This document shows, piece by piece, positions 3,440-35,839 of a stretch of 64,000 bases of DNA (positions within the stretch are counted from its first letter, which is position 1; every line of letters starts with the position of its first letter). Both the position numbers and the translations under genes were made by a program. This stretch comes from Candidatus Woesebacteria bacterium RBG_16_42_24. Its GTDB lineage: Bacteria; Patescibacteriota; Microgenomatia; UBA8517. The stretch covers positions 304,705 through 368,704 of the forward strand of contig MGFX01000001.1 in the NCBI GenBank assembly GCA_001792115.1, given 5' to 3'. The notes beneath the pieces were generated by a model. It was not told the origin of the DNA. It saw only the letters and a list, made by a program, of their open reading frames with translations, and did not search any database.

Positions 3440-4479
3440 TGACGGCTAACGATTATCTAAAAAAATACTCCAAGGAGGCTGACAGATTTCTCAATAGTTT
3501 TTTTCTAAAAAAAAGAAGACTAGCGGGTAGAATTGATCCTGATTTAGTCAACATACTTCAAGTTTTTCAGGATTACACGAAAGGAGGAAAAAAGGTCCGT
3601 GGGGCTTTAACCGTTCTTGGTTACCAAGCTTGTGGGGGAAAAGATATAAAAGCGATTCTTCCCGTTTCCTGCGGAATTGAGCTTTTTCATAATTTCCTTC
3701 TAATTCATGACGACATAATCGATAGAGACAAAGAAAGACGGGGCAAGCTCACCGTTCACACGCACTTTGCTGCAAAAAGAGGCGAGCACTACGGGAATTC
3801 TAAGGCAATAATAGTGGGTGACGTTGGGGCTTTCTTGGCCTATGAGCTCATTTTATCCTCAGGTTTTTCTAAGGAGAGAACGCTAAGGGCTGTCGCAAAA
3901 CTCAATGAATTTTTATTAAAAACCGGCTACGGACAACTTTTAGACATAGACTACGATTTTAAGAAGAATATAAGTTGGGACGATATACTAAAAGTCCGGA
4001 CATATAAGACTGCTTATTACACAATTACGATGCCTTTAAGCGTCGGCGCGATACTTGCCGGGGCAAAATTAGAAGTGTTAAATAATATAGAGAAATACAG
4101 TATTCCAGTTGGCCTTGCTTTTCAGCTGGCTGACGATATTTTGGGAGTATTCGGTTCAATCGAAAAAACTGGAAAAAGTAACACCTCAGACATTAGTGAA
4201 GGTAAAAAGACATTCCTCTATGCAAAAAGTTTAGAATTGGCAAATGCCGAAGATAAAAATTTTTTACAAAGATGGTATGGGGTGAAAGATGCCAATGAGT
4301 CAAGGGTGAGGCGGATTAGAGAGATAATGGGTTTTTGCGGCGCACAAGAGTATTCACAAAATCTTGCATATGATTTGGTCAAAAAAGGGAAAAAATATGT
4401 GGCTATGATTACGAAAGTAAGGAAATACCAAGAACTCTTGGAAAGTTTGGCAGATTATGTAGTTAATAGGGAAAAGTAG
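3436..4479 (+). CDS. polyprenyl diphosphate synthase (FPP/GGPP synthase family)
   Basis: First DDxxD motif (LIHDDIIDRD) and second DDxxD motif (FQLADDILG). 347 aa. Start overlaps the rpsI stop. Confidence 0.8.
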   Translation: MMTANDYLKKYSKEADRFLNSFFLKKRRLAGRIDPDLVNILQVFQDYTKGGKKVRGALTVLGYQACGGKDIKAILPVSCGIELFHNFLLIHDDIIDRDKERRGKLTVHTHFAAKRGEHYGNSKAIIVGDVGAFLAYELILSSGFSKERTLRAVAKLNEFLLKTGYGQLLDIDYDFKKNISWDDILKVRTYKTAYYTITMPLSVGAILAGAKLEVLNNIEKYSIPVGLAFQLADDILGVFGSIEKTGKSNTSDISEGKKTFLYAKSLELANAEDKNFLQRWYGVKDANESRVRRIREIMGFCGAQEYSQNLAYDLVKKGKKYVAMITKVRKYQELLESLADYVVNREK

Positions 4480-4486
4480 CTGAAGT

Positions 4487-5209
4487 TTAGGGGAAAATTA
4501 GGAATTTCAAACCAATTAAGAGTAAAAACATTGAAATTACCGTTCTGAATTTTGCTTGAGGAATTCTGTTTACTATTTTTTTTGCAATCCAAGCCCCCAA
4601 GAAAGAAGCGGGAATAAAAGCAAGAAGACCCAAGGTAAGAGAGTGATTGATTCTTACTCCCCCCAGAAAATAGGTGCTTATGCGGGAAGCATCAATTGCA
4701 AAACCAGTGAGTCCCGAAATAAAAATATAAGCAGATTTGGGTAGGTTAAAGGCCGTTAAAACAACACTCCTTAAGGCCCCGCCACCTACTCCAGAAATTC
4801 CTCCCAAAAAACCTGATCCGGCTCCCCCGATCCCAGCCGTTAACATATTATCTTTAAGTTTGAAATCTGGCTTGAAAAATAAATAGACAATATAGACCAA
4901 AAGGATTAGTCCGACAAATCTGGAAAGAAGCACTTCGGGAAGGGTAAGTGCCATTCGCGCCCCGATATAAGCCATAATAATCCCGGGAAGGGCAAAGAAG
5001 AAGAGAAGTTTTGCATCAAATCCGTGTTTGAAAAAATACATTTTCCAAATGTCCCCGAACCAGTGAATAACTCCTACAAGAAGAAGCGTCTCTGGCAAGG
5101 GGAGAAAAAGTAGAACCACAGGAACCATGATGGTTGAAATTCCAAACCCGGTAATTGTTCCCACGATTCCGGCAAGGAATGTAAGGACAGTGAGAAATAA
5201 GATTTCCAT
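4487..5209 (-). CDS. TSUP/TauE-SafE family membrane transporter
   Basis: 240 aa, polytopic. Two-repeat architecture with GxGGG-like motifs typical of DUF81/TauE proteins. Confidence 0.65.
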   Translation of the reverse strand: MEILFLTVLTFLAGIVGTITGFGISTIMVPVVLLFLPLPETLLLVGVIHWFGDIWKMYFFKHGFDAKLLFFFALPGIIMAYIGARMALTLPEVLLSRFVGLILLVYIVYLFFKPDFKLKDNMLTAGIGGAGSGFLGGISGVGGGALRSVVLTAFNLPKSAYIFISGLTGFAIDASRISTYFLGGVRINHSLTLGLLAFIPASFLGAWIAKKIVNRIPQAKFRTVISMFLLLIGLKFLIFP

Positions 5210-5325
5210 TTATTAGGGTCTCTTGATGACATCCTCCCCGCGAGGATGACATATCAGCGTTCAATTCATTTCCAGGCCCAGAGCCTGGAGTTTTCTTGAA
5301 TGCTGTTATAAAATATACCAGAATT

Positions 5326-5396
5326 CGGGGTGTAGTTTAACGGCAGAATGCGCGGCTGGGGGTCGTGCGGTCTGGGTTCAATTCCCAGCACCCCGA
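5326..5396 (+). tRNA. tRNA-Pro (anticodon GGG)
   Basis: Hand-folded cloverleaf. Acceptor CGGGGTG/CACCCCG, T arm CTGGG-TTCAATT-CCCAG, anticodon stem CGCGG/TCGTG with loop CTGGGGG (U33, GGG, G37). CCA is not encoded. Confidence 0.7.
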
Positions 5397-5438
5397 CATA
5401 GAAAGAAAGCTAAACCGTAAAAGGTTTGAGGGTGTAGC
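5394..5438 (+). repeat. direct repeat copy 1 (cgacatagaaagaaagctaaaccgtaaaaggtttgagggtgtagc), overlapping the last 3 nt of tRNA-Pro
   Basis: Near-identical copy at 6915-6960, differing by 1 indel and 2 substitutions. Read directly in the sequence. Confidence 0.7.
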
Positions 5439-5674
5439 TTTGAGTAATTACCGCTTCGTAGAGCAAAACTATTACCTCGCATTGCTTGATAATGATTTAC
5501 TCTTCTTTTACGCTCAATCGCTAAGTTACCACAAATTGTATTTATCTGCCCTTTTGTAGATTCTGGAATCCTTGTAGAAGGGTCGCTTGAAACTTTCGGC
5601 TGATTATCTAATTCATTCGGCTGGTCATTATCCATGACCTTAGTATATCAATATCCTGAAAGTCGTTAGGTTAA

Positions 5675-6262
5675 TTACTTTGAAGGAAAAATATCATCTG
5701 AGGTATTGTATTCGCCATCGGGGCCTAAACTTCTAAGTTCATACGATTGTCCATCATCAGAAACCTTGTAGTAAAATGGCTTCATATAGTGGTCTGAGGG
5801 AAACACAGTATATCCATCCTTTGATAGTTCCTCTAGAGTTTGAGGATAAGTCCCATTTTTCTTTTTGTATAGCTCCAAATACCCAGCATTTTGAGTCAAA
5901 ATTTGTTCGCTCGCTTGCTTTTTGGGTGCGTCAAATGGTCCCCCCTTTGCAACAAAACCAAAATAGAATAGTGAACCATACATAACAATGCTAAATAAAA
6001 TACCTAGAACTCCTAAAATTATTCCAGCAATTGCTAATTTTTTACCACCAACACCACCCTTTTTTATTTTTGAAAGTCCAATGGCTCCCAAAATAATAGC
6101 AATTATTCCCGTAAGAACACCCAGTAATGGCATGAATGATACTAGTCCTAGTATAAAACTAGCAATCGCTAATCCAGATTTAGGAAGTTTTTCTGGTTGT
6201 TGGGACACTAATGGTTGATTTTGAGGAGTTACCACTGGTTGAGTACTTGTGTCAATTGTCAT
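5675..6262 (-). CDS. membrane protein with a DUF4190-like N-terminus and a type II secretion GspG/pseudopilin-like C-terminal domain
   Basis: 195 aa. Two TM helices (GLAIASFILGLVSF...GIILGVLGILFSIV), then ...LELYKKKNGTYPQTLEEL...YELRSLGPDGE, which resembles GspG C-domains. Lies between the two direct repeats. Confidence 0.45.
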   Translation of the reverse strand: MTIDTSTQPVVTPQNQPLVSQQPEKLPKSGLAIASFILGLVSFMPLLGVLTGIIAIILGAIGLSKIKKGGVGGKKLAIAGIILGVLGILFSIVMYGSLFYFGFVAKGGPFDAPKKQASEQILTQNAGYLELYKKKNGTYPQTLEELSKDGYTVFPSDHYMKPFYYKVSDDGQSYELRSLGPDGEYNTSDDIFPSK

Positions 6263-6914
6263 ATTTCATTAGGTAAATAATTACTACTATTTTAGTAAAT
6301 CAAATTCATAAACATAATGCAACAGATTTCCATTATTGAAATCAGATCAATCCTGAAATCGTTAAGCTTAAAAAAAGTTAGAGTTTAACTTTTTATCAAT
6401 TGTCTAGAACTTATAGACTTTTTAACTTTAACTTACTAGGTACTTAGACTATTTGGAATTCAAACAGATTTAAGTACCTTTGTGTACTTTCACCCCATAC
6501 TTAATAGGTATTAATATAGCTCAACTACCTACTTCCTTAAATTACTTGGCTTTTTTAATTCCTCGTTTAAGTCAATTCTATTACCTTGATTGTCTGTAAT
6601 ACTGGTTGCGTTTTGCTCGGCTTCTGGGGATTTGGTATCTACCGACTGCAGTTCACTCATGAGTTGAGTTAATGCCTGAACTGTGTTTTGGTCAACATTT
6701 GAAATTACACTTTGTTCGTTTGTGGCGTTTTATTGCTGTTGAGTTACAATTTGCTGATTATCAGTAGACATAATTGATTGTATTATGGCGGATTTGATCT
6801 GGATTTTGTATCGGTTCAGAGGTCAAAAGTCGTGTATCAAAGGTGTCTGGTTGCCAGTGTGTTAAAATTGATTGCACAAGAGGCGATAAATGTTCAAACT
6901 TTGTCGCTTCTTCG

Positions 6915-6960
6915 CGACATAGAAAGAAAGCTAAAGCGGTAAAAGGTTTGAGGGTATAGC
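6915..6960 (+). repeat. direct repeat copy 2
   Basis: See copy 1 at 5394-5438. Immediately upstream of the GC-rich esterase gene. Confidence 0.7.
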
Positions 6961-7999: not shown

Positions 8000-8038
8000 A
8001 GAGGAAATCGTAACTGGGGTTTTCCTCTTGCAATTTTT
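7999..8038 (+). terminator. Rho-independent terminator after the esterase gene
   Basis: 9-bp stem AAGAGGAAA/TTTCCTCTT followed by GCAATTTTT. Confidence 0.5.
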
Positions 8039-8064
8039 CCTCGGAAGTTGTACAAGATAGCGCA

Positions 8065-9156
8065 ATGGCAAAGAGGAAAAAAGTTGAGACCAAAGCTCCG
8101 GTTCAAAAATCCGAAGGATCTTCGCAAAAACTTCAGGCGATAAGGCTCGCTATGGAGCAGATTGAGAAGCAGTATGGTCGGGGTTCAATTATGAGGCTTG
8201 GTGAGCGGGGAGACGCTCGACTCAAAATTGAAGTAATTCCAACCGGATCAATCGCGCTTGATTTGGCACTAGGAGTTGGGGGATTTCCCAGAGGACGCAT
8301 CGTTGAAATATATGGACCAGAAGCCTCAGGGAAAACAACAATTGCTCTTTCCGCTATTGCCGAGGCTCAAAGAAAAGGAGGCCAGGCAGCATTCGTTGAC
8401 GCCGAGCACGCTCTTGACCCGGCTTGGGCGGAGAAAATTGGAGTGAACCTTGACGATCTTTTAATGTCCCAGCCCGATACAGGCGAGCAGGCTTTGGAAA
8501 TTACGGAAACCTTAATCCGCTCGGGGGCTCTTGACGTAATTGTCGTTGACTCGGTTGCCGCCCTTGTCCCCAGGGCGGAGCTTGAGGGGGAGATGGGAGA
8601 CGCGGTGATGGGGATGCAGGCGAGACTTATGAGTCAGGCTTTAAGAAAACTTACGGGGGCAATTTCTAAGTCCAAAACGGTTCTAATATTCACTAACCAA
8701 TTAAGACAAAAAATCGGAGTTATGTTTGGGAATCCGGAAACGACACCGGGTGGATTGGCGTTAAAGTTTTATTCATCCATTAGACTCGATATAAGAAGAA
8801 TTGAAGTACTAAAAGACGGTGAAGCAGCGATTGGCTCGAGACATAGGGTGCGAGTTGTTAAAAATAAGGTAGCACCTCCTCTAAAGATAGCGGAACTTGA
8901 TATTATGGCCGATAAGGGAATTTCTCGCTCCGGCGGACTTTTAGACGTTGCGGTTGAATTGGGCTTGATGAGTAAAAGCGGATCATTCTTTAATTTTGAT
9001 GGGAAACCTTTGGCTCAGGGAAGAGAAGGAGCAAAAGCTTTTATTGAGGAACACACAAAATTTGCGGAAGAGATAGATAAAAAAATCCGCGATATGGTAG
9101 CCTCTGGGATAAAGCTTCCGAAAGAAATCGGCGAAGCCGAGGGTAAAGATTCTTAA
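8065..9156 (+). CDS. recA: recombinase RecA
   Basis: 363 aa. Walker [10 protein letters not shown], and [20 protein letters not shown]. Canonical RecA throughout. Confidence 0.95.
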
Positions 9157-9208
9157 GTAGTTGTCTTTCACTTAATATCTTTATATCTTAATATCGTAGT
9201 ATCAAACG

Positions 9209-9832
9209 ATGCCTTCTATAACCGCTATTAAACCCCAAAAGAACGGCAGGAGAGTCAATATTTATTTGGACGGTAAATTCGGATTCGGGATAGACATTGA
9301 GAATTTTGTAAAACTTGGACTCAAGGTTGAACAAGAGCTTTCTGATACAGAAATTGAGGGAATAGTTAAAAAAGCGGAGTTTCTAAAGACGCTGGATAAG
9401 CTCTTAAGGTTCGGAACCTTAAGGCCAAGAAGCGAGAAAGAGCTAAAAGATTGGCTTAAAAGAAAGAAAGTGCACGAGAGTTTGACCGAGGAGCTCTTTA
9501 ATCGATTGAACCGATTGGATTTGGTGGACGATAAAAAATTTGCCGAGTGGTGGATTGACCAGAGACAGAATTTCCGTCCAAAAGCGAAAAGAATATTGAA
9601 TATGGAATTAAGAATGAAGGGGATTAGAAAGGAAATAGTTAAAGATGTTTTGGATAGGCTTAAAATTGATGAAGAGAAAATTGCGAGAGAGCTTCTTGAG
9701 AAAAAGTTATACCGTTGGAAGAATCTTCCGAAATTAGAGAAAAGACAGAAAATGGGACAGTTTTTGGCGAGAAAAGGATTTGGGTGGGAGATAATTTCTA
9801 AATTGATAAAAGATTTTTCTTTTGAAGAATGA
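9209..9832 (+). CDS. recX: RecA regulator RecX
   Basis: 207 aa helical-repeat protein directly downstream of recA. RecX-like repeats (DD..FAEWW...RGF). Confidence 0.7.
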   Translation: MPSITAIKPQKNGRRVNIYLDGKFGFGIDIENFVKLGLKVEQELSDTEIEGIVKKAEFLKTLDKLLRFGTLRPRSEKELKDWLKRKKVHESLTEELFNRLNRLDLVDDKKFAEWWIDQRQNFRPKAKRILNMELRMKGIRKEIVKDVLDRLKIDEEKIARELLEKKLYRWKNLPKLEKRQKMGQFLARKGFGWEIISKLIKDFSFEE

Positions 9833-25076: not shown

Positions 25077-26525
25077 ATGCAAAGAAAATCTTTTGTTGCA
25101 ATAACCTTCACTCGGCAAAAACTCCAGGTAGTAAAACTCAATTCGGGCAAAACTCGCGTTGAAAAATTTGCCACGGTTGACTTGCCCCAGGGAATAATTT
25201 CTGACAATCAGGTTGTAAATCCGCAAGGGCTCACGCAGGTTATTAAAAATATATGGCGAGAGCTCGGGTTCAGAGAGAAAACTGTGGGGATTGTAATACC
25301 GGAGTTCTCCACCTTTGTGAAACCACTAGAACTTCCTAAATTAGAGGTTTCGGAACTCGACGAAGCTGTTCGTTGGCAGGCTCAGGAGTTTCTTCCCACT
25401 GGGAGTTCCGAGATGGTTATGGATTGGAAAATAGTTGGCGAAAATGGGGAAAAATACCACATTCTGACGCTCGCCATGAAGAAGGCAGTCTTGGCGGGCT
25501 ATGTGGATGCGGTTTCTATGGCAGGACTTTATCCACTATTGGTTAAGACTCCGGCTCTCACACTAAACTCTCTCACGGGCAAAGAACCTTTGGGCAAACT
25601 AATTATCTATTCCAATTTCGGAGAAACAGTACTAGTCGTTGCTTACGGAGAAAAGATATTGGGAAGCTCGGTCTTGAATCTTGATGAAAAAGTGGACGTG
25701 GTTGAGAGTGCAAGCCTAATAGTTAAGCATTATAAAGAAGTCGAAATAAAAAAAGTTTTTGTAGGTGGGGCAGATATAACGCAGGCTTTTGCTGCCCAAG
25801 TCGGTAAGATTTTAGGTAGACCGGTCGAGGTTTTAAAATCGACCGTTCAGGGAATTCCGCCTGGAGAGCTCCAAAAGTATCTAGTTACAATTTCATTGGG
25901 ATTAGCTAAAAGCGTGGGTCCTTCGGACGAGACTACAATCAATTTGCTGCCCGTAACTTGGGTGAAAAGATATGAGGGCAAAAGGCTTAAATCGCAAATC
26001 TGGGGACTATTGAGCTTATCGACCCTGGTCATTCTAGGCTGTTTAATTGTCACCGCAGGAACCTATTTCTATCTGGGGAGAGAAGCCGAAAGAATTGCAG
26101 GGGAAAATAAAACCAAGGTGACAACAGTTCCCGAAGAACTTACGGCGAAGATTTCTGAAATTAATGAAACTAGTGCTCGAATACTTGCGGTTTCTGAAGT
26201 TTCCCAGACCCCGCAAGAGGTGATAAACTCGATTCTCGCCGTAAAACCCCCCGAAGTGACAATTAAGGAGTATAAACTTGACCTCGACAACGGAAAAATA
26301 TTTTTTAAGGGAGTAAGCCCGACTCGAGAAGCTCTGGTTAAATTTAAAGAAGGGCTAGAAGGGAATCCCGAGTTTGCATCCATTTCTATTCCAATTTCTA
26401 GCTTTGAGGCAGAAATAGACTTAGAGTATGAAGTAAATTTGATATTTGTTCCTGCAACTCGGAAAGCGGGGTCGACCCCCAAGCTTCCACAAAATGTTAA
26501 AAACACAAACACCCCAGGTATCTAA
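25077..26525 (+). CDS. pilM: type IV pilus assembly protein PilM with a fused C-terminal PilN-like transmembrane/periplasmic segment
   Basis: N-terminal actin-like PilM domain (IVIPEFSTFVK...AVRWQAQEFLP). TM helix at approximately residue 310, then a PilN-like domain. 482 aa. Confidence 0.7.
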   Translation: MQRKSFVAITFTRQKLQVVKLNSGKTRVEKFATVDLPQGIISDNQVVNPQGLTQVIKNIWRELGFREKTVGIVIPEFSTFVKPLELPKLEVSELDEAVRWQAQEFLPTGSSEMVMDWKIVGENGEKYHILTLAMKKAVLAGYVDAVSMAGLYPLLVKTPALTLNSLTGKEPLGKLIIYSNFGETVLVVAYGEKILGSSVLNLDEKVDVVESASLIVKHYKEVEIKKVFVGGADITQAFAAQVGKILGRPVEVLKSTVQGIPPGELQKYLVTISLGLAKSVGPSDETTINLLPVTWVKRYEGKRLKSQIWGLLSLSTLVILGCLIVTAGTYFYLGREAERIAGENKTKVTTVPEELTAKISEINETSARILAVSEVSQTPQEVINSILAVKPPEVTIKEYKLDLDNGKIFFKGVSPTREALVKFKEGLEGNPEFASISIPISSFEAEIDLEYEVNLIFVPATRKAGSTPKLPQNVKNTNTPGI

Positions 26526-27183
26526 TAAATCGAAGGTGAATCAGGCAACAACCCTTAAGGGAAGTCCGATAGATGTGACTAAACCTCCCAAGAGGGAGGC
26601 CGAAGAGGAAGTTATAGAGGTGTTTGACGAGGCTGGAGGGATTAAAAAAGGAAGTTTTCTAGGGAATTTACTTATAAGGGCAGCGATACTTGCCTTCATC
26701 AATCTGGTAGGCGTTGCGGGTATTATATATTTTGACCGAAGCATTGCCAAGAAAGCTATCGAGGTCAAAAATCTAAGGAGCGAGCAAATAGGCCTAAGCA
26801 ATCAGAATTCAGAAGTAATCAGAAATAGCATTGAGCAATATCAGAAGAAGGGGGAAGTACTTGCACAGGTATTTCCCAATGACGCTGGACTTGTAGATTT
26901 TGCCAACGAACTGGATAGAATTAGGAAAGAGGGAAAAATTGTCGGATTTACTTTTGTGGCAGAAGAGGCAGTAAAAGATAAAACTGGTTCGTTAGGGATC
27001 CCCGTGTTAATTGAAATTAAAGGCACTTGGGCAGAAATTGACACCGACTTACGAAAAATCCAAGCTCTTCCGTTTTTGCTGCGCGCAATCCAGGTAGAAG
27101 CGGGACCGGCCCTCGAAGAGGGACAAATTGACTTTACATTTGGGGGCTTTTTATATGTTGGGAAAGACTTTAGGAAAAATTGA
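26494..27183 (+). CDS. PilO-like pilus assembly protein
   Basis: Basic N-terminus, one TM helix (LLIRAAILAFINLVGVAGIIYF), then a coiled-coil/ferredoxin-like region. The ORF-track start at 26446 is probably upstream of the true start. Confidence 0.45.
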   Translation: MLKTQTPQVSNKSKVNQATTLKGSPIDVTKPPKREAEEEVIEVFDEAGGIKKGSFLGNLLIRAAILAFINLVGVAGIIYFDRSIAKKAIEVKNLRSEQIGLSNQNSEVIRNSIEQYQKKGEVLAQVFPNDAGLVDFANELDRIRKEGKIVGFTFVAEEAVKDKTGSLGIPVLIEIKGTWAEIDTDLRKIQALPFLLRAIQVEAGPALEEGQIDFTFGGFLYVGKDFRKN

Positions 27184-27394
27184 CCGGTTCTATCCGATTT
27201 TGGTAATAGTGCTTATTGCACTTTCTGTCCTTGTGTTTTTTTCATTAAGGAGTGTATTTAATGGGCTTACTAATGCGAGCGAATTTGATCTGGGTGTTGC
27301 ACCTTCAAATACAAAAATTAACGAGAAAAATCTTAACGAGGCATACAAAGAAGTATCTGAAAAGCCAGTATTAAAATTCGACTTGGCCCAATAA
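27128..27394 (+). CDS. small hypothetical membrane protein
   Basis: 88 aa with one TM helix. Overlaps the pilO 3' end in another frame, so it may not be real. Confidence 0.25.
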   Translation: MTLHLGAFYMLGKTLGKIDRFYPILVIVLIALSVLVFFSLRSVFNGLTNASEFDLGVAPSNTKINEKNLNEAYKEVSEKPVLKFDLAQ

Positions 27395-27398
27395 GGAA

Positions 27399-27869
27399 TT
27401 GGGCGATATAATGAAACAAGTGAGAAAAGGATTTACACTTATCGAACTTCTTGTGACGATTGCCATAATAGGCATTTTAGCTACAGTCTCGATAAGCGCC
27501 TTAAATCCCCAGAGGCAGTTGGCTAAAGCTCGTGATACCCAAAGGAAAACCGATATTTATTCTATCGCCTCAGCCATATATCAGTTCGCATCTGAACACT
27601 CAGGAGATTTGCCCGATACAGACGGAAATCCTCTGACGAGTAACTTTCCAACGAGCCCAACTTGTGTTGGGACCGGTGGCGGTTGTTTCAATCTGGGTGC
27701 AGCAGGGGATACAGAACCCGTTGTCCCGACTTATATGGCAGCAATGCCCAAGGATCCGAAAACAGGAACGGACGCCAATACAGGCTACCTTGTAAATAAA
27801 GATGCTAACGGAAGAATAGTCTTAACCGCAACCGGCGAAGTCGATAACCCCATAACGGTAACGAAATAG
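27399..27869 (+). CDS. pilA: type IV major pilin (prepilin)
   Basis: Leader ...KQVRKG|FTLIELLVTIAIIGILA. Alternative start at 27411 gives a 7-aa leader. Cys pair (CVGTGGGC) in the C-terminal domain. Confidence 0.85.
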   Translation: MGDIMKQVRKGFTLIELLVTIAIIGILATVSISALNPQRQLAKARDTQRKTDIYSIASAIYQFASEHSGDLPDTDGNPLTSNFPTSPTCVGTGGGCFNLGAAGDTEPVVPTYMAAMPKDPKTGTDANTGYLVNKDANGRIVLTATGEVDNPITVTK

Positions 27870-27955
27870 GCTTTGCTTTCAATATTTATAACAGCATTCA
27901 AGAAAACCCCGATTAAATCGGGGATGAATTGAACGCTGATATGCCATCATGATTT

Positions 27956-29044
27956 ATGAGAGCTGAACAGATTAACGAAACTATCCCTAGGTTATTAGTT
28001 AGTAATGAATTTGCCGGCTTCGTTTCTACAGGAAATTTTAATTATGAGCAGACGCAAAAATTGATTCTTCTTCATGTTGGTTTAATTGGCGAACATAATT
28101 TAAATACTCCCTATACAGCCTTTACCGATAAAGGTAGAGGTCTATCTTTCCAGCCCATAAGACTTGGTGAAGATTTAGTTTTAAAAACTGGACCGATAGG
28201 AGCATTTAGCGCTGAGGAGATAGCCGTTTTTATTCAAGAGCAATCCAGAAATTATGTGGATAGAACAACCATGGGTAGGGGTTTTCCGAGGGGCGATATG
28301 GGGGCAGAGCAGGAACTATTGGCGGTGTTTATAGACGGATTTAGTAGCAGTGACGTTTTTATAGTAATAGAAAAAGAGTTGCCGGAGGGAATTTCAACTA
28401 TCGGTGGGGCAAGAATTGTAAGGGGTATTTCCCAAAGAACCCTGAAAGAAACAGCCTCTTATGAAGAATATTTAAAAAAGGGGCCCCTATCTTCTCTTCC
28501 GACATTTTCTGCAGTTAAGCTGAAGGGAGAAGATGTTTTTTCCTCAGACCTTTTAAGTGTGCCAGAGAAAGATTGCACTTGTATAACGAGATACTGGAGG
28601 GAGGATGATTATACCCTGGCGGCACTGCAAGTAAATAATTCGCAGATACCGGTGGACATAATAGCTGCAATGCCCATTGCCTATTCAGTCTACTTTGCTA
28701 AGGAAGCGGGGGTGAGGAATGTTCCGAGGGTCGCGGTTTATGACATTCATATGCGCGCAATTGCAGAATTTGCCAGAGATAATTTTGCATCTCAAATAAT
28801 TGCGGATGGCGAGGGGGTAGTTCCGACTAGAGAGGTTTTAGATTCAGTTCTTAAATACCATTATGGCGGCCAGGAGTTAGAAGGTTATCGGGGAAAGATT
28901 GTGGTTGGCGGATTCCACACCTCAAGTTTCCTAAGTAGATCCCTCAAATACCTAGAGGGGAGGGTAGAATTAGACGATTCAGTTTTACAGATAGCAAAAG
29001 ATGTGATAAAAAGTAGTGTAAATTTCCCGCCCGAATTGGCATGA
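27956..29044 (+). CDS. hypothetical protein (362 aa) with no recognisable motif, translationally coupled to the downstream E1-like gene
   Basis: Long ORF with good coding character. Its stop overlaps the next ATG (ATGA at 29041-29044). Confidence 0.5.
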   Translation: MRAEQINETIPRLLVSNEFAGFVSTGNFNYEQTQKLILLHVGLIGEHNLNTPYTAFTDKGRGLSFQPIRLGEDLVLKTGPIGAFSAEEIAVFIQEQSRNYVDRTTMGRGFPRGDMGAEQELLAVFIDGFSSSDVFIVIEKELPEGISTIGGARIVRGISQRTLKETASYEEYLKKGPLSSLPTFSAVKLKGEDVFSSDLLSVPEKDCTCITRYWREDDYTLAALQVNNSQIPVDIIAAMPIAYSVYFAKEAGVRNVPRVAVYDIHMRAIAEFARDNFASQIIADGEGVVPTREVLDSVLKYHYGGQELEGYRGKIVVGGFHTSSFLSRSLKYLEGRVELDDSVLQIAKDVIKSSVNFPPELA

Positions 29045-30414
29045 TTTATTCCACACGTCCCGAGTTTAAACATTTTTCTTGCGAGTCAGAAAAAGTTGAT
29101 TCCGACCCCCTTTTTTGGAAGTTTAAAGTGATTGATCCTCATATAGACTCAGGTTTAGGTGAATTATTAAATTTAATAGGGGAGTACGCCATCCAAGAGA
29201 GAGATATCTCAAACAGGTCGTATATTTCCGGGTCCTCGGAAATAACAAATCTGGCAAACTTCTTCGAAAGCTCCTCTTTGCCAAGCGATAAGGAGCATCT
29301 GGCCTCTTTGGTTGTACAAAAAGTTAGGGAGCGTACCACTTATTTATCCGAAGAGGATATTAGAGAAACCGTAGAACATGGGCCACTGCTTGAGGACTAT
29401 GCGTTTCTTATCGGAAGATTAAAAGCTTACAAGCAAAACCCCGCCCTTTTAGAACAGAATTCCAGATTTATCTTCGACCCGATAAAAAGGAGATTGGATT
29501 TATATTTAGGTCCCGATGAGCATAGGCTCCTTGCTATGTCAAGAGTGCTCGGACTGATCCCCTTTAGTGCGATCGAAAGATTAAGAGAAACGAAAATTAG
29601 AGTCATGGGGGCTTCGGTTGCGGCATCTACAATAGAAACCCTGGTTGCCTTGGGTGCAGAAAATATTGTTTTTTATGACTACGGATTTTTGGATCCTGCC
29701 AAAATGCCACAGATGCCCGGTGGAATGGGAGACTTCAGGAATTCAGGGGAGCCAAAAGTTAAGGCACTGATGGAACTTGTACAGGGCCGTAATCCCTATG
29801 GCATTTTCCTTGGTATTCCGGGAAAAGTTCTAATTCCAGGAGAGGCAAAGCAAAGTGAATTTGACGTTTACTTGGACGAGATTATAGATGATGCGGATTT
29901 ATTGATAGAGGTGGTCGACCAATACCATATCAAAGCGGGCACGAGGGCGCATAGCGATAAACCAATAGTCTTTGTAGCAGACTTGGGCAGCGACCCGATT
30001 GCAGGTATCGAGGATCCAAAGTTAAATCTTTGGTTCAATCGGGAAATATCTGATGAAGATAAGGCAAGAATGTCTAAAATTCCGGCTTCCCGAGAAGAGG
30101 CAATAAGAGAAGGCCCCAGGGCAATTTATCTTATGGTGAATAAAGATTTGAATGATGATCATCGTCTGCAATTTTTATTAGCTAGCTTAGGCCTTATCCC
30201 TTTTTGGTCACAAACACCAACATCAACCAGAGAATCGGCCGCTTTGGCATCAAAACTCATTATTGAATGGACACAAAATAGCCCGGTAATGGGAAAAAAT
30301 ATCCATCCGAATGAGTCTCCAAAAACCTTAATCGAGATGTTTAATGCTAAAACATCTCTTAATTTAAGAAGGATTTGTGCGGAACTACTCGATATTCCTC
30401 CCTCGATTATTTAA
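29041..30414 (+). CDS. ThiF/MoeB/E1-like fold protein with a degenerate nucleotide-binding loop
   Basis: KIRVMGASVAASTIETLVALGAENIVFYDYGFLD matches the E1 Rossmann pattern hhhhGxGxxGxxhaxxLaxxGhxxhxhhDxDxV, but GxGxxG is replaced by GASVAAS. GEPKVKALMELVQGRNP matches d.GkpKv.aa...l...NP. DLLIEVVDQYHIKAGT...KPIVFVAD matches DlVvDctDn.etR...kPlv. Confidence 0.5.
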   Translation: MIYSTRPEFKHFSCESEKVDSDPLFWKFKVIDPHIDSGLGELLNLIGEYAIQERDISNRSYISGSSEITNLANFFESSSLPSDKEHLASLVVQKVRERTTYLSEEDIRETVEHGPLLEDYAFLIGRLKAYKQNPALLEQNSRFIFDPIKRRLDLYLGPDEHRLLAMSRVLGLIPFSAIERLRETKIRVMGASVAASTIETLVALGAENIVFYDYGFLDPAKMPQMPGGMGDFRNSGEPKVKALMELVQGRNPYGIFLGIPGKVLIPGEAKQSEFDVYLDEIIDDADLLIEVVDQYHIKAGTRAHSDKPIVFVADLGSDPIAGIEDPKLNLWFNREISDEDKARMSKIPASREEAIREGPRAIYLMVNKDLNDDHRLQFLLASLGLIPFWSQTPTSTRESAALASKLIIEWTQNSPVMGKNIHPNESPKTLIEMFNAKTSLNLRRICAELLDIPPSII

Positions 30415-30475
30415 GCAGGTTTTTAAATATTTACTACTTTAGTCAGCCGTTTAATGTTATATTTTTATTAATAGA

Positions 30476-32077
30476 GTGTTTAATACCTTAGGTCTTCTAA
30501 CGGTTTCGCTGACAGTACTGGCGACATTTTTCATAACGGTAATAGTATTTATTCGAAATCCTAGGTCGGCCAGTCATATCCTTCTTAGTCTTATGGCTAT
30601 TTTATTAATAGCTTGGGCGGCTACAAACTATCTCGCCCTTTCTCCTGGGAGTGAAGAAACCCGGCTTTTTTGGGTTAGAATAGTTATGTTTGTTACCACA
30701 CCCCTCGCGCCATTAATTTTCTTATTGGCTAGCGTCTTTCCGGAAGCCAACTTCAATATTAAGAAAAGTTTATTTCTTGTAATTTTGTTTTCAACATTAT
30801 TTACGGCCGCGATAGCCTTATCTCCTTATACATTTACAAAGTTGGTTAATTTACCCGATGGGAGTTTCCGACTATACCCGGGTTGGGGAATAATCGCATA
30901 TGCCATAAATTTGATGGTTCTTTTGTCCTGGGGACTAGCTAAACTAGTTCAAAAATATAAGAAAAGTAATGGGTTATTGAGAAAACAGCTGGGGATATTT
31001 GTATATAGCATAGTAATTTCGTTTTCTTTAATGACCCTCACCAATTTCATCGCGGTGGTTGTATTTAAAACTATCAGTCTTACCATGTTAGGCCCCACTT
31101 TTACCTTGCTAATCGTTGCCGGAATTTCTTATGCAATTATCAGGCACGGCCTTCTAGATATTAAAATTTTGGCCACTGAGCTGTTTGTAGTCTTTCTACT
31201 TCTAATTCTTTTTGCCAAGATTGTAATTTTTACCTCTATTGGCGAATTAATAGTTGACGTAGTTATTTTTGTTTCGGTCCTATTTTTCGGCATTCTTCTA
31301 ATTCGAAGTGTTATAAGGGAAGTTATGCAAAGGGAGAAATTACAGGTGTTGACGGAAAGACTGAAGGCTGTCGATAAACAGAAGGACGAATTCGTTTCCA
31401 TGGCCGCTCATGAACTTAGGGCACCCATGACAGCGATAAAAGGCTACCTTTCAATGGTGGTTGAAGGAGACGCGGGAGATATTCCTGAAAAGGCAAGAGG
31501 TTTTCTGGCCGACACCGCCGCAATTAATGAAAGGCTAATTAGATTGGTAAACAACATGCTTAATGTTTCAAGGATTGAAGAAGGTAGGATGGTATATCAA
31601 ATCGAGCAGGAGAATCTTTCGTCGGTTGTGAGAGCCGCTTTTGCACAGTTTAGGTCCGAAACGGAGAGAAAGGGTCTTAAATTTGAGTTAATAATTCCGC
31701 CTGAAATTAAGGACAGGATCGAAGTAGACATGGACAGAATTCATGAGGTCGTTGCCAATTTATTAAGTAATGCCATAAAATATACCGAAAAAGGTAAGAT
31801 TACTGTCAGATTATCGCAACCCAACCCCGGGAATGTACGCTTCGAAGTTGAGGACACTGGTCCTGGAATATCTAAAGAGGAACAGGGTAAGCTCTTCCAA
31901 AAATTTGTGAGAGCTGAGTCTAGTATAGGTAAAACCACCGGGACAGGACTTGGACTTTATATTTGTAGATTACTTATCGAGAAATTTTACGGAAGGATTG
32001 GTCTAATCTCTGAAGAGAAGAAAGGAAGCATCTTTTGGTTCGAGATACCCCTAGTTAACAAAAAAGTGACAGCTTAG
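30476..32077 (+). CDS. sensor histidine kinase (multi-TM sensor, HisKA, HATPase_c)
   Basis: H-box MAAHELRAPMTAIKGY, N-box LLSNAIKYT, G-boxes DTGPGI and GTGLGL. 533 aa with about 8 TM helices. Confidence 0.85.
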   Translation: MFNTLGLLTVSLTVLATFFITVIVFIRNPRSASHILLSLMAILLIAWAATNYLALSPGSEETRLFWVRIVMFVTTPLAPLIFLLASVFPEANFNIKKSLFLVILFSTLFTAAIALSPYTFTKLVNLPDGSFRLYPGWGIIAYAINLMVLLSWGLAKLVQKYKKSNGLLRKQLGIFVYSIVISFSLMTLTNFIAVVVFKTISLTMLGPTFTLLIVAGISYAIIRHGLLDIKILATELFVVFLLLILFAKIVIFTSIGELIVDVVIFVSVLFFGILLIRSVIREVMQREKLQVLTERLKAVDKQKDEFVSMAAHELRAPMTAIKGYLSMVVEGDAGDIPEKARGFLADTAAINERLIRLVNNMLNVSRIEEGRMVYQIEQENLSSVVRAAFAQFRSETERKGLKFELIIPPEIKDRIEVDMDRIHEVVANLLSNAIKYTEKGKITVRLSQPNPGNVRFEVEDTGPGISKEEQGKLFQKFVRAESSIGKTTGTGLGLYICRLLIEKFYGRIGLISEEKKGSIFWFEIPLVNKKVTA

Positions 32078-32087
32078 AGATTCGAGC

Positions 32088-32567
32088 TTGAAAATTGCCG
32101 CCATTACGAGTTATAGTTTAAGGACAGTGGCGCAAGATAAAGTACAACAGACAACTTCATTCCAACCCCAGGCTGTAAAAGAAGAGGAAACACAAAAAGG
32201 GCCAACGGTGCTTTTTATAGAAGACGATACCCTGCTATTAAAAATGTACAAGACTAAATTTGAGAACGAAGGCTTTAGGGTACTTACCGCTCAAGATGGA
32301 GAAGAAGGCCTTTCCATGGCGAAAGATCAGAATATCGATCTTGTCATATTGGACATAATGATGCCTATCCTCTCGGGCCTTGACATGCTTGCCCAGTACC
32401 GACAGGATCCAAAAGGCAAGAGTGTTCCTGTGATAATTCTTACCAATCTTACTCGTGAAGATGAGATGAAAAGAGCCAGGGAATTGGGCGTTAAAGAATT
32501 TATAGTCAAAGCGGATTACACTCCGAGTGAGGTTGTCAGAAAAATTAAAGATTACTTAGGGAAGTAA
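32088..32567 (+). CDS. single-domain response regulator (receiver only)
   Basis: REC domain (LFIEDD...LDIMMP...K). No output domain. About 40 aa N-terminal extension. Confidence 0.75.
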   Translation: MKIAAITSYSLRTVAQDKVQQTTSFQPQAVKEEETQKGPTVLFIEDDTLLLKMYKTKFENEGFRVLTAQDGEEGLSMAKDQNIDLVILDIMMPILSGLDMLAQYRQDPKGKSVPVIILTNLTREDEMKRARELGVKEFIVKADYTPSEVVRKIKDYLGK

Positions 32568-32573
32568 ATTCAA

Positions 32574-32789
32574 ATGGAACAACCCCAAGCGATTCAAGAA
32601 ACTCTTCGCGCAGTCGCTTTGGGGGGATTTTTGACGGCCTCAACGCTAATTATCGGTATTAACTTTAAAGTTTTTAACAATATTTTTAAAGAGAATGCGC
32701 ATAAATATTGGTGGTTATTTTTAGTTTCGGCTGTAATTCCCGTCGCAGTGGTTCTTTTCATTTTTTCCTTCTTTTTTGAGCGAACGTAA
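32574..32789 (+). CDS. small hypothetical membrane protein
   Basis: 71 aa with two hydrophobic helices. Confidence 0.3.
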   Translation: MEQPQAIQETLRAVALGGFLTASTLIIGINFKVFNNIFKENAHKYWWLFLVSAVIPVAVVLFIFSFFFERT

Positions 32790-32794
32790 CACTT

Positions 32795-34168
32795 TTAGTA
32801 TGCCCCTTTTCCTAAGAGCACTAAGGGAACGGTTTTGACAATTATAGTCATATCAAGAAAGAACGACTGATTATTTATATAATAAAAATCGTATTCCAGA
32901 TTTTCCTCCAAGGGTAAGTCCTTTCTTCCCAGAATTTGCCAGAGTCCGGTTAAGCCAGGTTTTACCTCGAGTCTTTTTTTCTGCCACTTACTGTATTTTG
33001 CGACCTTTTGTGGCATTTCTGGTCTGGGGCCGACCATGCTCATGCTTCCGGCAATTACATTAATAAGTTGGGGAAGCTCGTCGAGACTAGTTTTTCTTAA
33101 GAATTTTCCAATTGCCGTAATTCTTTCATCGTTAAGACTGCCGGGAGGATCTGCATACTTAGGCGTATTTTTTTTCATTGTCCTAAATTTCAACATATTA
33201 AACACTTTCCCTCCTCGCCCCACCCTTTTTTGCTTAAGTACAGCTGGCGAGCCGTCGCTAATAATAATTGCGCAACTTATGAATAACCAAAGAGGGGAGA
33301 TTGCCACATAAAGTATTGATGCAAAGATTAAGTCGAAAATTCTTTTAGGATAACCCGGCCAGAAACCTTGTTGACTTCGCCAAAGCTCAAGTGAGGGAAT
33401 ACTTTCAAGTCTTGCCACATCGACAGTGCCACTAACCAAATCAAATATTGAAGAAACTACTCGAAAGCGTAAATTTTTCTTGGATACTTTGGTCATAAGG
33501 TCAAGGACTTTGGAGTGGGCTAGGGTAGGGTCGGTAATGTAGACTTCATCTACAGCGTACTTGTTTATGACCCTCGCGATGTCTTTGACCTTTCCAATAA
33601 CAGGAAAATGTTTGCGGGATTGGGCTCTATCGTCTAAAAATCCTACCAGGCGATATCCTATCTGCGAGAAATCCCCAAGCTTTCTTGCAAGCTGCCTTCC
33701 GGGCGGCCCCGCTCCTATTATTAATATCTTTACCAGGGAGTAGCCCTGGCGATAGTATTTTTGCTCGATAATCCTAAAAAGATTTCTTCCTAAACTTATG
33801 AAAAGAAGGGTAAACAGATAGAATACAATAACTATGATTCTTGAGTAATCGTACTTATAAAGGTATGAGCCTACCATTATTAGAAGTACCCAGAAGGAAG
33901 TTGCTTTAATTACCAGAAAAGATTCTGGGAATACCTTGCTTCTTTTGGTCTGATCGTATAAACCGAAAATGTTATAAACCAAAAGTAGAAGAAGAATTGC
34001 AAAGGGTAGGGCTGCAAGATAAACTTTTAGGGGCTGGATAGATTCTAAAAAAAGCCTAAAAGGACCGTAGTTACGAAGATAGTAAGCCGTAAAAAAGGCA
34101 ACTGCGGCCATGAGGGAATCGGTAGCTTTAAGGGACAGCGCGATTTTGGAAGCCCCGTTAACCCTCAT
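32795..34168 (-). CDS. undecaprenyl-phosphate sugar phosphotransferase (WbaP/exopolysaccharide polyprenyl glycosylphosphotransferase family)
   Basis: 4 N-terminal TM helices, a CoA-binding-like Rossmann segment (ILIIGAGPPGRQLARKL), and a C-terminal bacterial sugar transferase domain (KRVGRGGKVFNMLKFRTM...PGLTGLWQI). Confidence 0.85.
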   Translation of the reverse strand: MRVNGASKIALSLKATDSLMAAVAFFTAYYLRNYGPFRLFLESIQPLKVYLAALPFAILLLLLVYNIFGLYDQTKRSKVFPESFLVIKATSFWVLLIMVGSYLYKYDYSRIIVIVFYLFTLLFISLGRNLFRIIEQKYYRQGYSLVKILIIGAGPPGRQLARKLGDFSQIGYRLVGFLDDRAQSRKHFPVIGKVKDIARVINKYAVDEVYITDPTLAHSKVLDLMTKVSKKNLRFRVVSSIFDLVSGTVDVARLESIPSLELWRSQQGFWPGYPKRIFDLIFASILYVAISPLWLFISCAIIISDGSPAVLKQKRVGRGGKVFNMLKFRTMKKNTPKYADPPGSLNDERITAIGKFLRKTSLDELPQLINVIAGSMSMVGPRPEMPQKVAKYSKWQKKRLEVKPGLTGLWQILGRKDLPLEENLEYDFYYINNQSFFLDMTIIVKTVPLVLLGKGAY

Positions 34169-34309: not shown

Positions 34310-35839
34310 ATGCTAGCCAAGATAGTTTCCGGAGCGACAGTTGGGCTTGATGCCGTTTTGGTCGATGTGGAGGTAGATATTGCCGAGCAAGGACTTCCGA
34401 GTTTTACCATCGTCGGTCTTCCGGATAAGGCGGTAGAGGAGTCAAAAGAAAGAGTGCGTGCAGCCATTAAAAATTCTGGCGGGGATTTTCCCACATCCCG
34501 CATTACTGTTAATTTGGCCCCAGCAGATTTACCGAAAGCAGGACCTGCGTATGACCTTCCGATTGCACTGGGGATTCTTATTGCCTCAGGTCAGATAAAT
34601 CCGAGAGTTTCTGATGCGTTATTTTTCGGCGAGCTATCACTTGACGGAGGGTTAAGGCACACAAACGGAGTCCTTCCGATGGCCTATCTTGCAAGGCAGA
34701 TGAAGGTAGCAAAAGTATTTGTGCCGAAAGTAAATGAAAAAGAAGCTTCGGTCGTCTCGAAGATAGAGGTTTATCCGATTGAGTCTCTCTTGGAATTGGT
34801 ACGTTTCTTTGCCGATACTATCCAAATTACTCCTGCCAAAAGGCTAAATTTAAAAACATTGCTAATTCGCGGTGGAGCAGAGTTTGACTTTAACGAAATC
34901 ATTGGTCAAGAACACGCGAAGCGCGCAGCCGAGATAGCGGGAGCCGGCGGACACAATATTTTTATGAAAGGAACTCCCGGGAGTGGAAAAACAATGTTGG
35001 CCCGCGCCCTCCCCGGGATTTTGCCGACTTTAACGGAAAGCGAGGCACTGGAGGTGACCAAGATTTACTCCATAACCGGAAATTTGCCGCTTGGTGAGGC
35101 AATCGTTACGACGCACCCCTTTCGAAGTCCGCACCACACAACGAGTAGAATAGGACTCATTGGAGGGGGCTCAAATCCCTCACCAGGCGAAATATCTTTG
35201 GCACACCGAGGAGTTCTATTTTTGGACGAGTTCCCGGAATTTCCCAGACACGTCTTAGAAGCCCTTAGGCAGCCGATGGAAGATGGGGTAGTATCCATCT
35301 CGCGGGCAAAAGGATCGGTAACTTATCCAGCCCAATTTCTTTTGGTGGCTGCTTCAAACCCTTGTCCGTGTGGATATTTCGGAGATCTAAAGCGTGCCTG
35401 TACTTGTCTTCCGGGGGCAATTGCCCGTTATCAAAAAAGAATTTCTGGGCCGATACTTGATAGAATTGATATTCATATAGATGTTCCGTCTGTTGAGACG
35501 CAGAAGTTAGTAGGGAAGGCCGTTAAAGCCGAGAGCTCAAAAGAAATTCAGAAAAGGGTACAAAAAGCGAGAGACATACAGCTAAAGAGGTTTAAAGGAG
35601 CCAATCTAAAATCAAATAGCGAAATGGCCACGAGTGATGTCAAAAGATTCTGTAAATTGTCTGAAGAATGTCGCACAATGTTAACGACCGCCGTCGCGGC
35701 GATGAATCTTACAGCCAGAAGTTATTTCAAAGTCATAAAAATTGCCCGAACTATTGCGGATTTATCAGGCGAAGCTAGCATTTCGACTCTACATATAGCC
35801 GAAGCACTTCAATACCGCCCAAAAGAGACCGAGTTTTGA
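34310..35839 (+). CDS. comM: YifB/ComM family Mg-chelatase-like AAA+ ATPase
   Basis: N-terminal Lon-like domain, Walker A GTPGSGKTMLA, and a C-terminal Mg-chelatase domain. 509 aa. Confidence 0.85.
   Translation: MLAKIVSGATVGLDAVLVDVEVDIAEQGLPSFTIVGLPDKAVEESKERVRAAIKNSGGDFPTSRITVNLAPADLPKAGPAYDLPIALGILIASGQINPRVSDALFFGELSLDGGLRHTNGVLPMAYLARQMKVAKVFVPKVNEKEASVVSKIEVYPIESLLELVRFFADTIQITPAKRLNLKTLLIRGGAEFDFNEIIGQEHAKRAAEIAGAGGHNIFMKGTPGSGKTMLARALPGILPTLTESEALEVTKIYSITGNLPLGEAIVTTHPFRSPHHTTSRIGLIGGGSNPSPGEISLAHRGVLFLDEFPEFPRHVLEALRQPMEDGVVSISRAKGSVTYPAQFLLVAASNPCPCGYFGDLKRACTCLPGAIARYQKRISGPILDRIDIHIDVPSVETQKLVGKAVKAESSKEIQKRVQKARDIQLKRFKGANLKSNSEMATSDVKRFCKLSEECRTMLTTAVAAMNLTARSYFKVIKIARTIADLSGEASISTLHIAEALQYRPKETEF

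Follow-up and report, generated by a model that had tools for sequence, protein, structure and literature searches.

What is the function of the two translationally coupled genes that lie between a type IV pilin gene (5') and a histidine kinase gene (3') in Candidatus Woesebacteria bacterium RBG_16_42_24? The two open reading frames (ORFs) are located at positions 27956..29044 (362 amino acids, aa) and 29041..30414 (457 aa) of a 64,000-nucleotide stretch of contig MGFX01000001.1, which we refer to as the window; both start with ATG on the forward strand and they share an ATGA stop/start overlap at 29041..29044. A preliminary description, made from the letters of the window alone, had pointed out this coupled arrangement, which was indeed found as it was drawn there. 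It interpreted the 457-aa product as a ThiF/E1-like protein with a probably dead nucleotide loop, perhaps belonging to a conjugation, defense or peptide-modification system. The fold and the coupling have stood, whereas the dead loop and the type of system have not, and a conserved kinase and response regulator were missed as companions of the pair. Here we argue that the two proteins are a two-enzyme small-molecule synthase (a single bifunctional fused protein in some genomes) with a dedicated two-component module, a reading to which we give slightly less than an even chance.

Both ORFs are real genes, as homologs are found at E-values of 1e-40 to 1e-183. Candidatus Woesebacteria bacterium RBG_19FT_COMBO_42_9 is identical to the window and names both products 'hypothetical protein'. 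Loci with related genes are designated below as L001 and so forth; a scan of genomes returned four loci and one of metagenomes two. The partner gene, encoding the 362-aa protein, is found directly 5' of the E1-like gene in UBA1449, in a Daviesbacterium (34% identity) and in a further Woesebacterium (40%); the spacing in other genomes is 3-38 nucleotides (nt), or else both are contained in a single fused ORF. In addition to the fusions, the pair is thus kept as neighbors across Woesebacteria, Daviesbacteria and UBA1449. An exhaustive profile search of 1.84 billion proteins yields 97 representatives of the partner family, and approximately 11 of these are fusions of 717-882 aa with the partner domain at the N-terminus. 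Their C-terminal half has a ThiF match in eight of the nine tested; P0034, the remaining one, matches the E1-like family with an hhalign probability of 100 (E 6e-52), and the most divergent fusion (P0096) does so at a probability of 94.5. The fusions are placed deep in a rough neighbor-joining tree and the separate pairs in a derived clade. Given the ATGA overlap, the conserved adjacency and these natural fusions, the partner and the E1-like protein work together.

The pair does not travel alone. Downstream of it the window encodes a HisKA_7TM histidine kinase (30476..32077, forward strand; Pfam HisKA_7TM, HisKA and HATPase_c), which is our candidate for the sensor of the module, followed by a receiver-only response regulator of 159 aa (32088..32567, forward strand; Pfam Response_reg only). 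The same kinase is the next gene in all nine partner-bearing loci with downstream sequence (the window, L001, L003, L012, L017, L018, L019, L021 and L022), which means that the putative synthase and a polytopic sensor kinase are adjacent in every one of them. In its seven-transmembrane (7TM) region the kinase shares 55% identity with the window in L001, L003 and L012, and 40-45% in L018, L019, L021 and L022. A hidden Markov model of the module kinase also matches L017, and the other kinases of the same loci show no N-terminal match to it. Overall, the 7TM sensor (40-55%) exceeds both enzymes in conservation: identities are 26-40% for the partner and roughly 30-49% for the E1-like protein. Receiver-only regulators are present in all seven loci that extend past the kinase, namely the window, L001, L003, L012, L018, L019 and L022 (121-139 aa and 32-51% identical in the latter six). 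The outer flanks, on the other hand, vary: L003 has EF-P, Lgt and a toxin-antitoxin pair, L012 an S1 protein, L018 TyrRS and ABC-F, and L022 comEA/comEC. Since the flanks differ among loci while the module is constant, the four genes move as a unit. The module was found in Microgenomates-group bacteria of the Candidate Phyla Radiation (CPR), and plasmids and viral contigs yielded no relatives.

A further ORF of 71 aa (32574-32789), a predicted small membrane protein, starts 6 nt past the response regulator of the window; it has no Pfam match, and no counterpart was seen in the other loci.

Which chemistry can be expected from the 457-aa protein? Searches of both proteins as single sequences against Pfam, NCBIfam, PADLOC and PDB returned only weak ThiF hints, and the 457-aa protein alone has no Pfam ThiF match even at E<=10. 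When it was aligned with 15 homologs (n=16), 13 of the 16 members were found to match PF00899 at E<=0.01 (best 3.2e-18), and the family profile matches the TcdA-like domain of TsaN (8.5e-8) as well as Atg7 and Uba5 in the PDB; PaaA, MccB and Cap2 are among the structural neighbors. These matches confirm the ThiF/E1 assignment of the preliminary description, and the peptide strings on which that assignment was based (KIRVMGASVAASTIETLVALGAENIVFYDYGFLD, GEPKVKALMELVQGRNP and DLLIEVVDQYHIKAGT...KPIVFVAD) are all present in the translation. In addition to the E1-type Rossmann-like fold the protein has a helical domain at its N-terminus (about residues 20-165). The top NCBIfam model for the family is NF005901, 'Rv1355c family' (TrzS), which matches 9 of the 16 members (best E 6.4e-17) and outranks every ThiF, MoeB and TcdA model; it also ranks first in NCBIfam when the window protein is the sole query, though as a weak match (E 1.2e-4). 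Based on fold and profile, we predict that the product of 29041..30414 is an ATP-dependent carboxylate-activating enzyme (a cyclase).

The nucleotide loop requires closer attention. It reads G190-A-S-V-A-A-S196 (29608..29628, forward strand) and does not conform to the GxGxxG of the ThiF/E1 superfamily: profile alignment to ThiF places S192 at the second glycine and A195 at the third, in line with the replacement already noticed in the preliminary description. The step from there to a dead loop and a non-catalytic scaffold is contradicted by conservation. Over a set of 27 members (the 16 proteins plus the C-terminal halves of 11 natural fusions) the loop is G-A-S in 26 and GTS in one (pattern G-A-S-[VA]-x-x); G190, S192, D213, K239, E290, D293, K298 and D314 are invariant (27 of 27), A191 is found in 26 members and R168 in 25. 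Alignment of the family to E. coli ThiF with hhalign (E 4.8e-5) equates G190 with G35, S192 with G37, A195 with G40, D213 with D59, K239 with K83, D293 with D127 and K298 with R132; the ThiF sequence used agrees in numbering with the review PMC12596934 for each of the six ligand residues given there. According to that review, K83 and D127 of ThiF are phosphate ligands and R132 positions the substrate. The retained ATP/Mg/substrate ligand stretch spans 29677..29934 on the forward strand, with D213 at 29677-29679, K239 at 29755-29757, D293 at 29917-29919 and K298 at 29932-29934. Because the ligand positions are invariant in all members the site has not decayed, and the alignment indicates that the GAS loop is a fixed, strictly conserved variant. 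Cysteine, by comparison, is nowhere conserved among the 27 members (the best column, near the C-terminus, has 9 of 27), which excludes thioester or persulfide E1 chemistry.

Residues 313-334 (29977-30042 of the window; ADLGSDPIAGIEDP...FN) form another well conserved stretch, including the invariant D314. They have the lowest confidence of the structure model (pLDDT, the predicted local distance difference test, of 34-42) and are located where E1 enzymes have the crossover loop. In view of this combination, the modeled stretch may act as a mobile substrate lid.

The idea of a non-catalytic E1-like scaffold with a dead loop, operating in a system related to peptides made on ribosomes and modified after translation (RiPP) or thiazole/oxazole-modified microcins (TOMM), in ubiquitin-like protein (Ubl) conjugation or in anti-phage defense, can be weighed at this point. 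It finds some backing in the non-canonical loop and the missing Pfam match of the window protein, in the substituted equivalents of S66, N67 and R70, and in PaaA, MccB and Cap2 as structural neighbors. We nevertheless regard it as very unlikely, as the loop (apart from the single GTS) and four ligand positions are invariant across the 27 members, no cysteine is conserved and the partner is an enzyme of acyltransferase fold. Neither YcaO, E2, JAB, Ubl nor a precursor ORF is present in six annotated neighborhoods, there is no PADLOC match, and plasmid and viral relatives are lacking, all of which also speaks against the Ubl-conjugation, anti-phage and TOMM/RiPP readings of the preliminary description. 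Moreover, the gaps of the module in the window are only 86, 61, 10 and 6 nt (<=86 nt throughout), which leaves no room there for a precursor or Ubl ORF; this agrees with the earlier remark that no small precursor ORF is obvious nearby. Specifically, a canonical E1 of Ubl conjugation or defense (Cap2, BilD, Bub) was rejected for want of a catalytic cysteine and of Ubl, E2 and JAB nearby, and an E1-like 'C' scaffold of the TOMM/RiPP kind because there is no YcaO and no small ORF and the nucleotide site is strongly conserved.

Since the top PDB match is a TcdA-like domain, one may also think of a divergent TcdA-type tRNA t6A dehydratase, or of another RNA-modification enzyme, with the partner as an RNA or protein acetyltransferase. 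This we consider far-fetched: the NCBIfam TcdA model matches just 1 of the 16 members, fusion to a GNAT resembling AHL (acyl-homoserine lactone) synthases and the obligatory linkage to kinase and regulator would be unexpected for tRNA modification, and the family is much too scarce to serve a housekeeping function.

The partner (27956..29044) proved more difficult to place. As a single query it has no match in Pfam, NCBIfam, PADLOC or PDB sequences, and profiles built from 8 and 72 sequences found nothing across Pfam, NCBIfam and PDB. What the preliminary description missed is the fold. The AlphaFold2 model of the partner (pLDDT 88.5, predicted template modeling score 0.88) is confident and shows an elaborated GNAT domain, to which the nearest solved structures are those of AHL synthases and of FeeM, an N-acyl amino acid synthase, and an independent Foldseek comparison has BjaI, LasI, MesI and RpaI at the top ranks (E 2-3e-4). 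The GNAT fold of the AHL-synthase type is thus present. Judged from the model, the appropriate name for this acyltransferase-like, sequence-orphan family is an 'AHL-synthase / N-acyl-amino-acid-synthase-like fold', not 'a LuxI'.

An N-acyl amino acid synthase fold combined with a ThiF-like enzyme has a precedent in the N-acyl oxazolones, which were discovered in 2020-2021 and later found in Mycobacterium tuberculosis, and for which the discoverers suspect a signaling role. In these pathways an N-acyltransferase (OxzA, TyzA or TrzA) makes N-acyl-Tyr, -Phe or -Trp from acyl-CoA, after which a ThiF-like enzyme (OxzB, TyzB or TrzS) performs the ATP-dependent cyclization of the N-acyl product and a flavin oxidase of the nitroreductase family carries out a desaturation (the separate TyzC or, in OxzB and TrzS, a fused domain). 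OxzA/OxzB are from Pseudoalteromonas rubra, TyzA/TyzB/TyzC and TrzA/TrzS from M. tuberculosis, and clusters of NasY, ThiF and nitroreductase are present in Planctomycetota and Proteobacteria (Stieleria, Massilia, Thalassotalea). TrzS is Rv1355c, the namesake of the best NCBIfam model, and its D217A mutation, affecting the Asp of the adenylation motif, abolishes cyclization (PMC12856293). We infer that D293 is the counterpart of this D217.

From what the analysis shows, namely the two folds, the fusion of the proteins, the retained ThiF ligand positions and the conserved module, we infer the following pathway. The 362-aa GNAT would acylate an amino acid at its amino group, and the 457-aa ThiF-like enzyme, nearest to TrzS/Rv1355c, would use a nucleotide triphosphate, despite its GAS loop, to activate the carboxylate of that product. 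The amide oxygen could then attack the activated carboxylate and close an oxazolone/azlactone-type ring, as in the cyclizations by TcdA, OxzB, TyzB and TrzS. No nitroreductase domain is present in the Pfam-annotated neighborhoods of six loci or among the neighboring genes of the window; because no oxidase of this family accompanies the pair, the product would stay a saturated ring, or else be another activated N-acyl amino acid derivative or intermediate. The likeliest arrangement is an autoinducer-like circuit, in which this lipophilic product would be sensed in the membrane by the 7TM kinase, with the kinase signaling through the receiver-only regulator and with type IV pili or DNA uptake as plausible outputs in some lineages.

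A number of observations weigh against this proposal. The partner is likened to OxzA, TyzA and TrzA by fold and gene arrangement. The LuxI family model (PF00765, Autoind_synth) does not match the window partner and matches 1 of 72 members of the partner family (E 0.023), no relation to a Pfam acyltransferase was detected, and hhalign of the partner family against LasI gives a probability of 0.3. The NF005901 scores of the E1-like family are far under the 476-bit full-length cut-off of that model, which spans the oxidase domain too, and the flavin oxidase itself, present in nearly all known oxazolone clusters, is neither adjacent nor fused here. With respect to the active site, all members have Ser in place of the second loop glycine, which could hinder phosphate binding; ATP binding is accordingly a prediction, and the ligand could be another nucleotide. 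The equivalents of S66/N67/R70 are A/K/Q in the window protein and its closest relatives (that of R70 is kept in about 20 of the 27 members). Some E1-like relatives occur solo, without partner or kinase. Lastly, conservation is higher in the 7TM sensor than in the enzymes, which is unusual, as signal/receptor pairs normally co-diverge; a kinase that senses something else, for instance the pilin in the membrane, would fit as well.

Given the FeeM-like fold, it might be argued that the product is a building block of the envelope. The GNAT would then make an N-acyl amino acid lipid in the manner of ornithine or glycine lipid N-acyltransferases, the ThiF-like enzyme would activate it for attachment and the kinase would monitor the membrane. 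N-acyl amino acids do double as membrane lipids and their precursors (PMC12856293), tyrazolones and tryptazolones were found mainly in cell fractions according to the literature, and the kinase is an all-membrane sensor, consistent with such remodeling by aminolipids. Known pathways, though, need an O-acyltransferase and not a ThiF enzyme, and none is found nearby; the family, with its 97 representatives, is very small and patchily distributed, which does not resemble a core function of the envelope, and the tight tie to a receiver-only regulator suits signaling better. We therefore consider aminolipid remodeling distinctly unlikely.

Upstream of the pair the window contains a type IV pilus cluster with T2SSF/PilC, PilM, minor pilins and the pilin (27399..27869, forward strand; Pfam N_methyl motif), a facultative neighbor of the pair. 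In L016 (1161-1613), L017 (2-448) and L021 (2157-2645) an ortholog of the pilin is found immediately 5' of the partner or fusion, and L001 has one 4.6 kb upstream of the pair (1852-2316); the identities are 53-87%. No such pilin is present within about 7 kb in L003, L012, L018, L019 and L022. The adjacency is thus more than a local accident, yet it is not universal. The notion of a type IV pilus accessory pair, which the preliminary description had offered as another option, is in keeping with adjacent orthologous pilins in four loci and a nearby one in a fifth; such a pilin is absent from five others. Hairpins were detected in the spacers between pilin and pair: that of the window (CCCCGAT-TAA-ATCGGGG at 27907..27923, forward strand, in a fold of 27867-27958) has -23.9 kcal/mol and z -3.4 with no U-tract on the forward strand, and the equivalent spacer of L021 has a canonical hairpin plus U-run with z -6.3. 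On account of these hairpins, the pilin is probably a separate or attenuated transcription unit. No Rfam element was found within 26500-33000, and a scan for promoter and terminator consensus sequences remained at background level.

The pilin is itself unusually conserved, with 53-87% identity across lineages whose neighboring enzymes share 26-49%. It has a conserved C-terminus (...ATGE[VI][DE]xPITV[TSD][KR]) and a conserved EHSG.LPDTDG...TC.G...CF.L motif. The segment between pilin and pair in L001 (2381-6377) encodes a 918-aa M23 peptidase, a 175-aa unknown protein and a PhdYeFM/PIN toxin-antitoxin, all absent from the window.

Genes for DNA uptake were also encountered. In L022 (Blackburnbacteria; 4128-6941) comEA and a split comEC (Competence and Lactamase_B) are located directly upstream of the fusion gene, and a ComM-like gene of the Mg-chelatase family is present a few kb downstream in the window (34310-35839) and in L001. 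The module may be linked to DNA uptake.

Could the pair then modify a protein of this machinery? If the two proteins serve the type IV pilus or modify proteins, the ThiF-like one would adenylate a protein carboxylate and the GNAT would transfer a group to the adjacent major pilin or to another type IV pilus or competence component, the kinase being PilS-like. Such a role is consistent with the pilin directly upstream in the window, L016, L017 and L021 (and at 4.6 kb in L001), with comEA/comEC in L022 and with the ComM-like genes; besides, protein or peptide C-termini are the substrates of most characterized ThiF enzymes (PMC12596934). The high conservation of the 7TM region would suit sensing of the conserved N-terminal helix of the pilin. 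A precedent for a kinase that senses membrane pilin is PilS. On the other hand, five of the ten loci are without such a pilin within about 7 kb whereas kinase and regulator are always present, and a terminator-type hairpin parts pilin and fusion in L021, with a hairpin likewise in the window. Furthermore, the models of both enzymes have no signal peptide or transmembrane segment, and the globular domain and C-terminus of a pilin are outside the cytoplasm, which disfavors modification of the pilin by the pair. A terminus of the kind known from E1 substrates, Gly-Gly or other, is lacking, and the nearest sequence model is a small-molecule cyclase. Taken together, we judge modification of a pilus or competence protein to be unlikely.

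The synthase reading can be extended to an autoinducer circuit specific to CPR bacteria, in which a saturated signal of the N-acyl oxazolone (azlactone) type, or a related N-acyl amino acid signal, made without oxygen or a flavin oxidase, would be perceived by the 7TM kinase and relayed via the regulator to pili or DNA uptake. We put this forward as a doubtful but testable extension. If true, the kinase would be the first receptor for the oxazolone lipid class, and the module a private quorum- or host-sensing system for ultra-small episymbiotic bacteria. CPR bacteria have a minimal metabolism and depend on host contact, and almost no communication systems are known from them, which gives value to a candidate. 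More generally, a distant version of the oxazolone two-enzyme logic that is genetically locked to one kinase and regulator provides a testable synthase-receptor hypothesis. A ThiF lineage with a universal Ser at the second loop glycine and an otherwise intact adenylation site is relevant to E1/ThiF enzymology as well.

Relatives of the two proteins also occur outside the module. Solo E1-like genes in six loci (L005-L009 and L015) lie between pseudouridine synthase and SecA genes, divergent from the former (of RluA type) and convergent with secA, in a context of ProRS, SerRS, AspRS and PRPP (phosphoribosyl pyrophosphate) synthase genes; the E1-like gene of L005 is at about 8001-9461. This clade has the same GASVAAS loop, and neither the partner nor the module kinase is found within 8 kb in these loci. 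A 289-aa unknown protein near the solo gene (L005) was considered and shows no relationship to either of the two protein families. The contig of L015 (CAZMXT010000013.1) is labeled 'uncultured Pseudomonadales bacterium'; as its gene order equals that of the CPR loci L005 and L006, it is probably mis-binned.

In L011 (821-3619) the solo E1-like protein P0008 is encoded directly 3' of a FAD_binding_4/FAD-oxidase_C gene. By analogy to the oxazolone clusters this may be another pairing of flavoenzyme and ThiF, but with a different oxidase family. In L010 (4664-15044) the gene for the solo E1-like protein P0012 starts before the stop codon of the preceding gene, which encodes a regulator of 657 aa (AAA-lid/HTH_8, Fis-type), with a ketoacyl synthase upstream and a Response_reg-STAS protein, a CHASE3-PAS hybrid kinase and two further regulators downstream; this is again a signaling context, with kinases unrelated to the module kinase. 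The 657-aa HTH_8 protein belongs to neither the partner family nor the E1-like one.

The partner domain, for its part, can be wired to other signaling hardware. P0063 (L020, 4411-9304) is a fusion of a cNMP-binding domain to the partner domain, with a weak GNAT-like match N-terminal of the cNMP domain, and is followed by a TPR protein (395 aa) and a Ser/Thr protein kinase; an E1-like gene is lacking there. The 395-aa TPR protein is unrelated to either family.

How does the module compare to known systems? It shares with the oxazolone pathways a GNAT of AHL-synthase/FeeM-like fold immediately upstream of a small-molecule ThiF enzyme (often translationally coupled), the conserved Asp and Lys of the adenylation motif, and a suspected role in signaling; the Rv1355c (TrzS) model is the best curated match, at scores far under its cut-off, and the fold neighbors of the partner include FeeM and BjaI, those reported for TyzA. 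It differs in that the fusion is GNAT-ThiF here and ThiF-oxidase there, in the GAS instead of GxG loop, in the extra helical N-terminal domain (~165 aa) on the ThiF, and in its CPR hosts, where a HisKA_7TM kinase is always found 3', a receiver-only regulator wherever the locus reaches and a pilin often upstream. The LuxI-type synthases (LasI, TofI, EsaI, BjaI, RpaI, MesI) and FeeM resemble the partner in fold, with no detectable sequence relation; the partner is ~160 aa longer and needs a ThiF-fold mate, and neither the use of S-adenosylmethionine nor lactonization is implied for it.

Bernard et al. 2020 (PMC7567580) list 18 'LuxI homolog / sensory kinase' neighbor pairs in CPR genomes. Unlike the module, these pairs match LuxI models and directly adjoin the kinase, no ThiF gene is mentioned for them, and the hosts given there are of other CPR phyla (Giovannoni-, Kerfeld-, Tagabacteria, WWE3); the lineages and accessions of the window do not appear in those parts of its table that were compared. 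MccB, PaaA and the 'C' proteins of TOMM clusters differ from the E1-like protein, which has no precursor peptide or YcaO beside it and whose active-site positions are conserved and not degenerate. TcdA/Tcd1 (the tRNA ct6A dehydratase) and the TcdA domain of TsaN share the ThiF fold and give the top PDB matches, and the ATP-dependent intramolecular cyclodehydration by TcdA serves as a model for the predicted cyclization step; they differ in their tRNA substrate, the canonical GxGGxG loop and the absence of a GNAT mate. With respect to gene order, finally, the module resembles the autoinducer synthase/membrane sensor-kinase gene pairs LuxM-LuxN, AinS-AinR and CqsA-CqsS: in both cases a (here putative) synthase gene lies beside the gene of a polytopic-membrane histidine kinase without a large extracytoplasmic domain.

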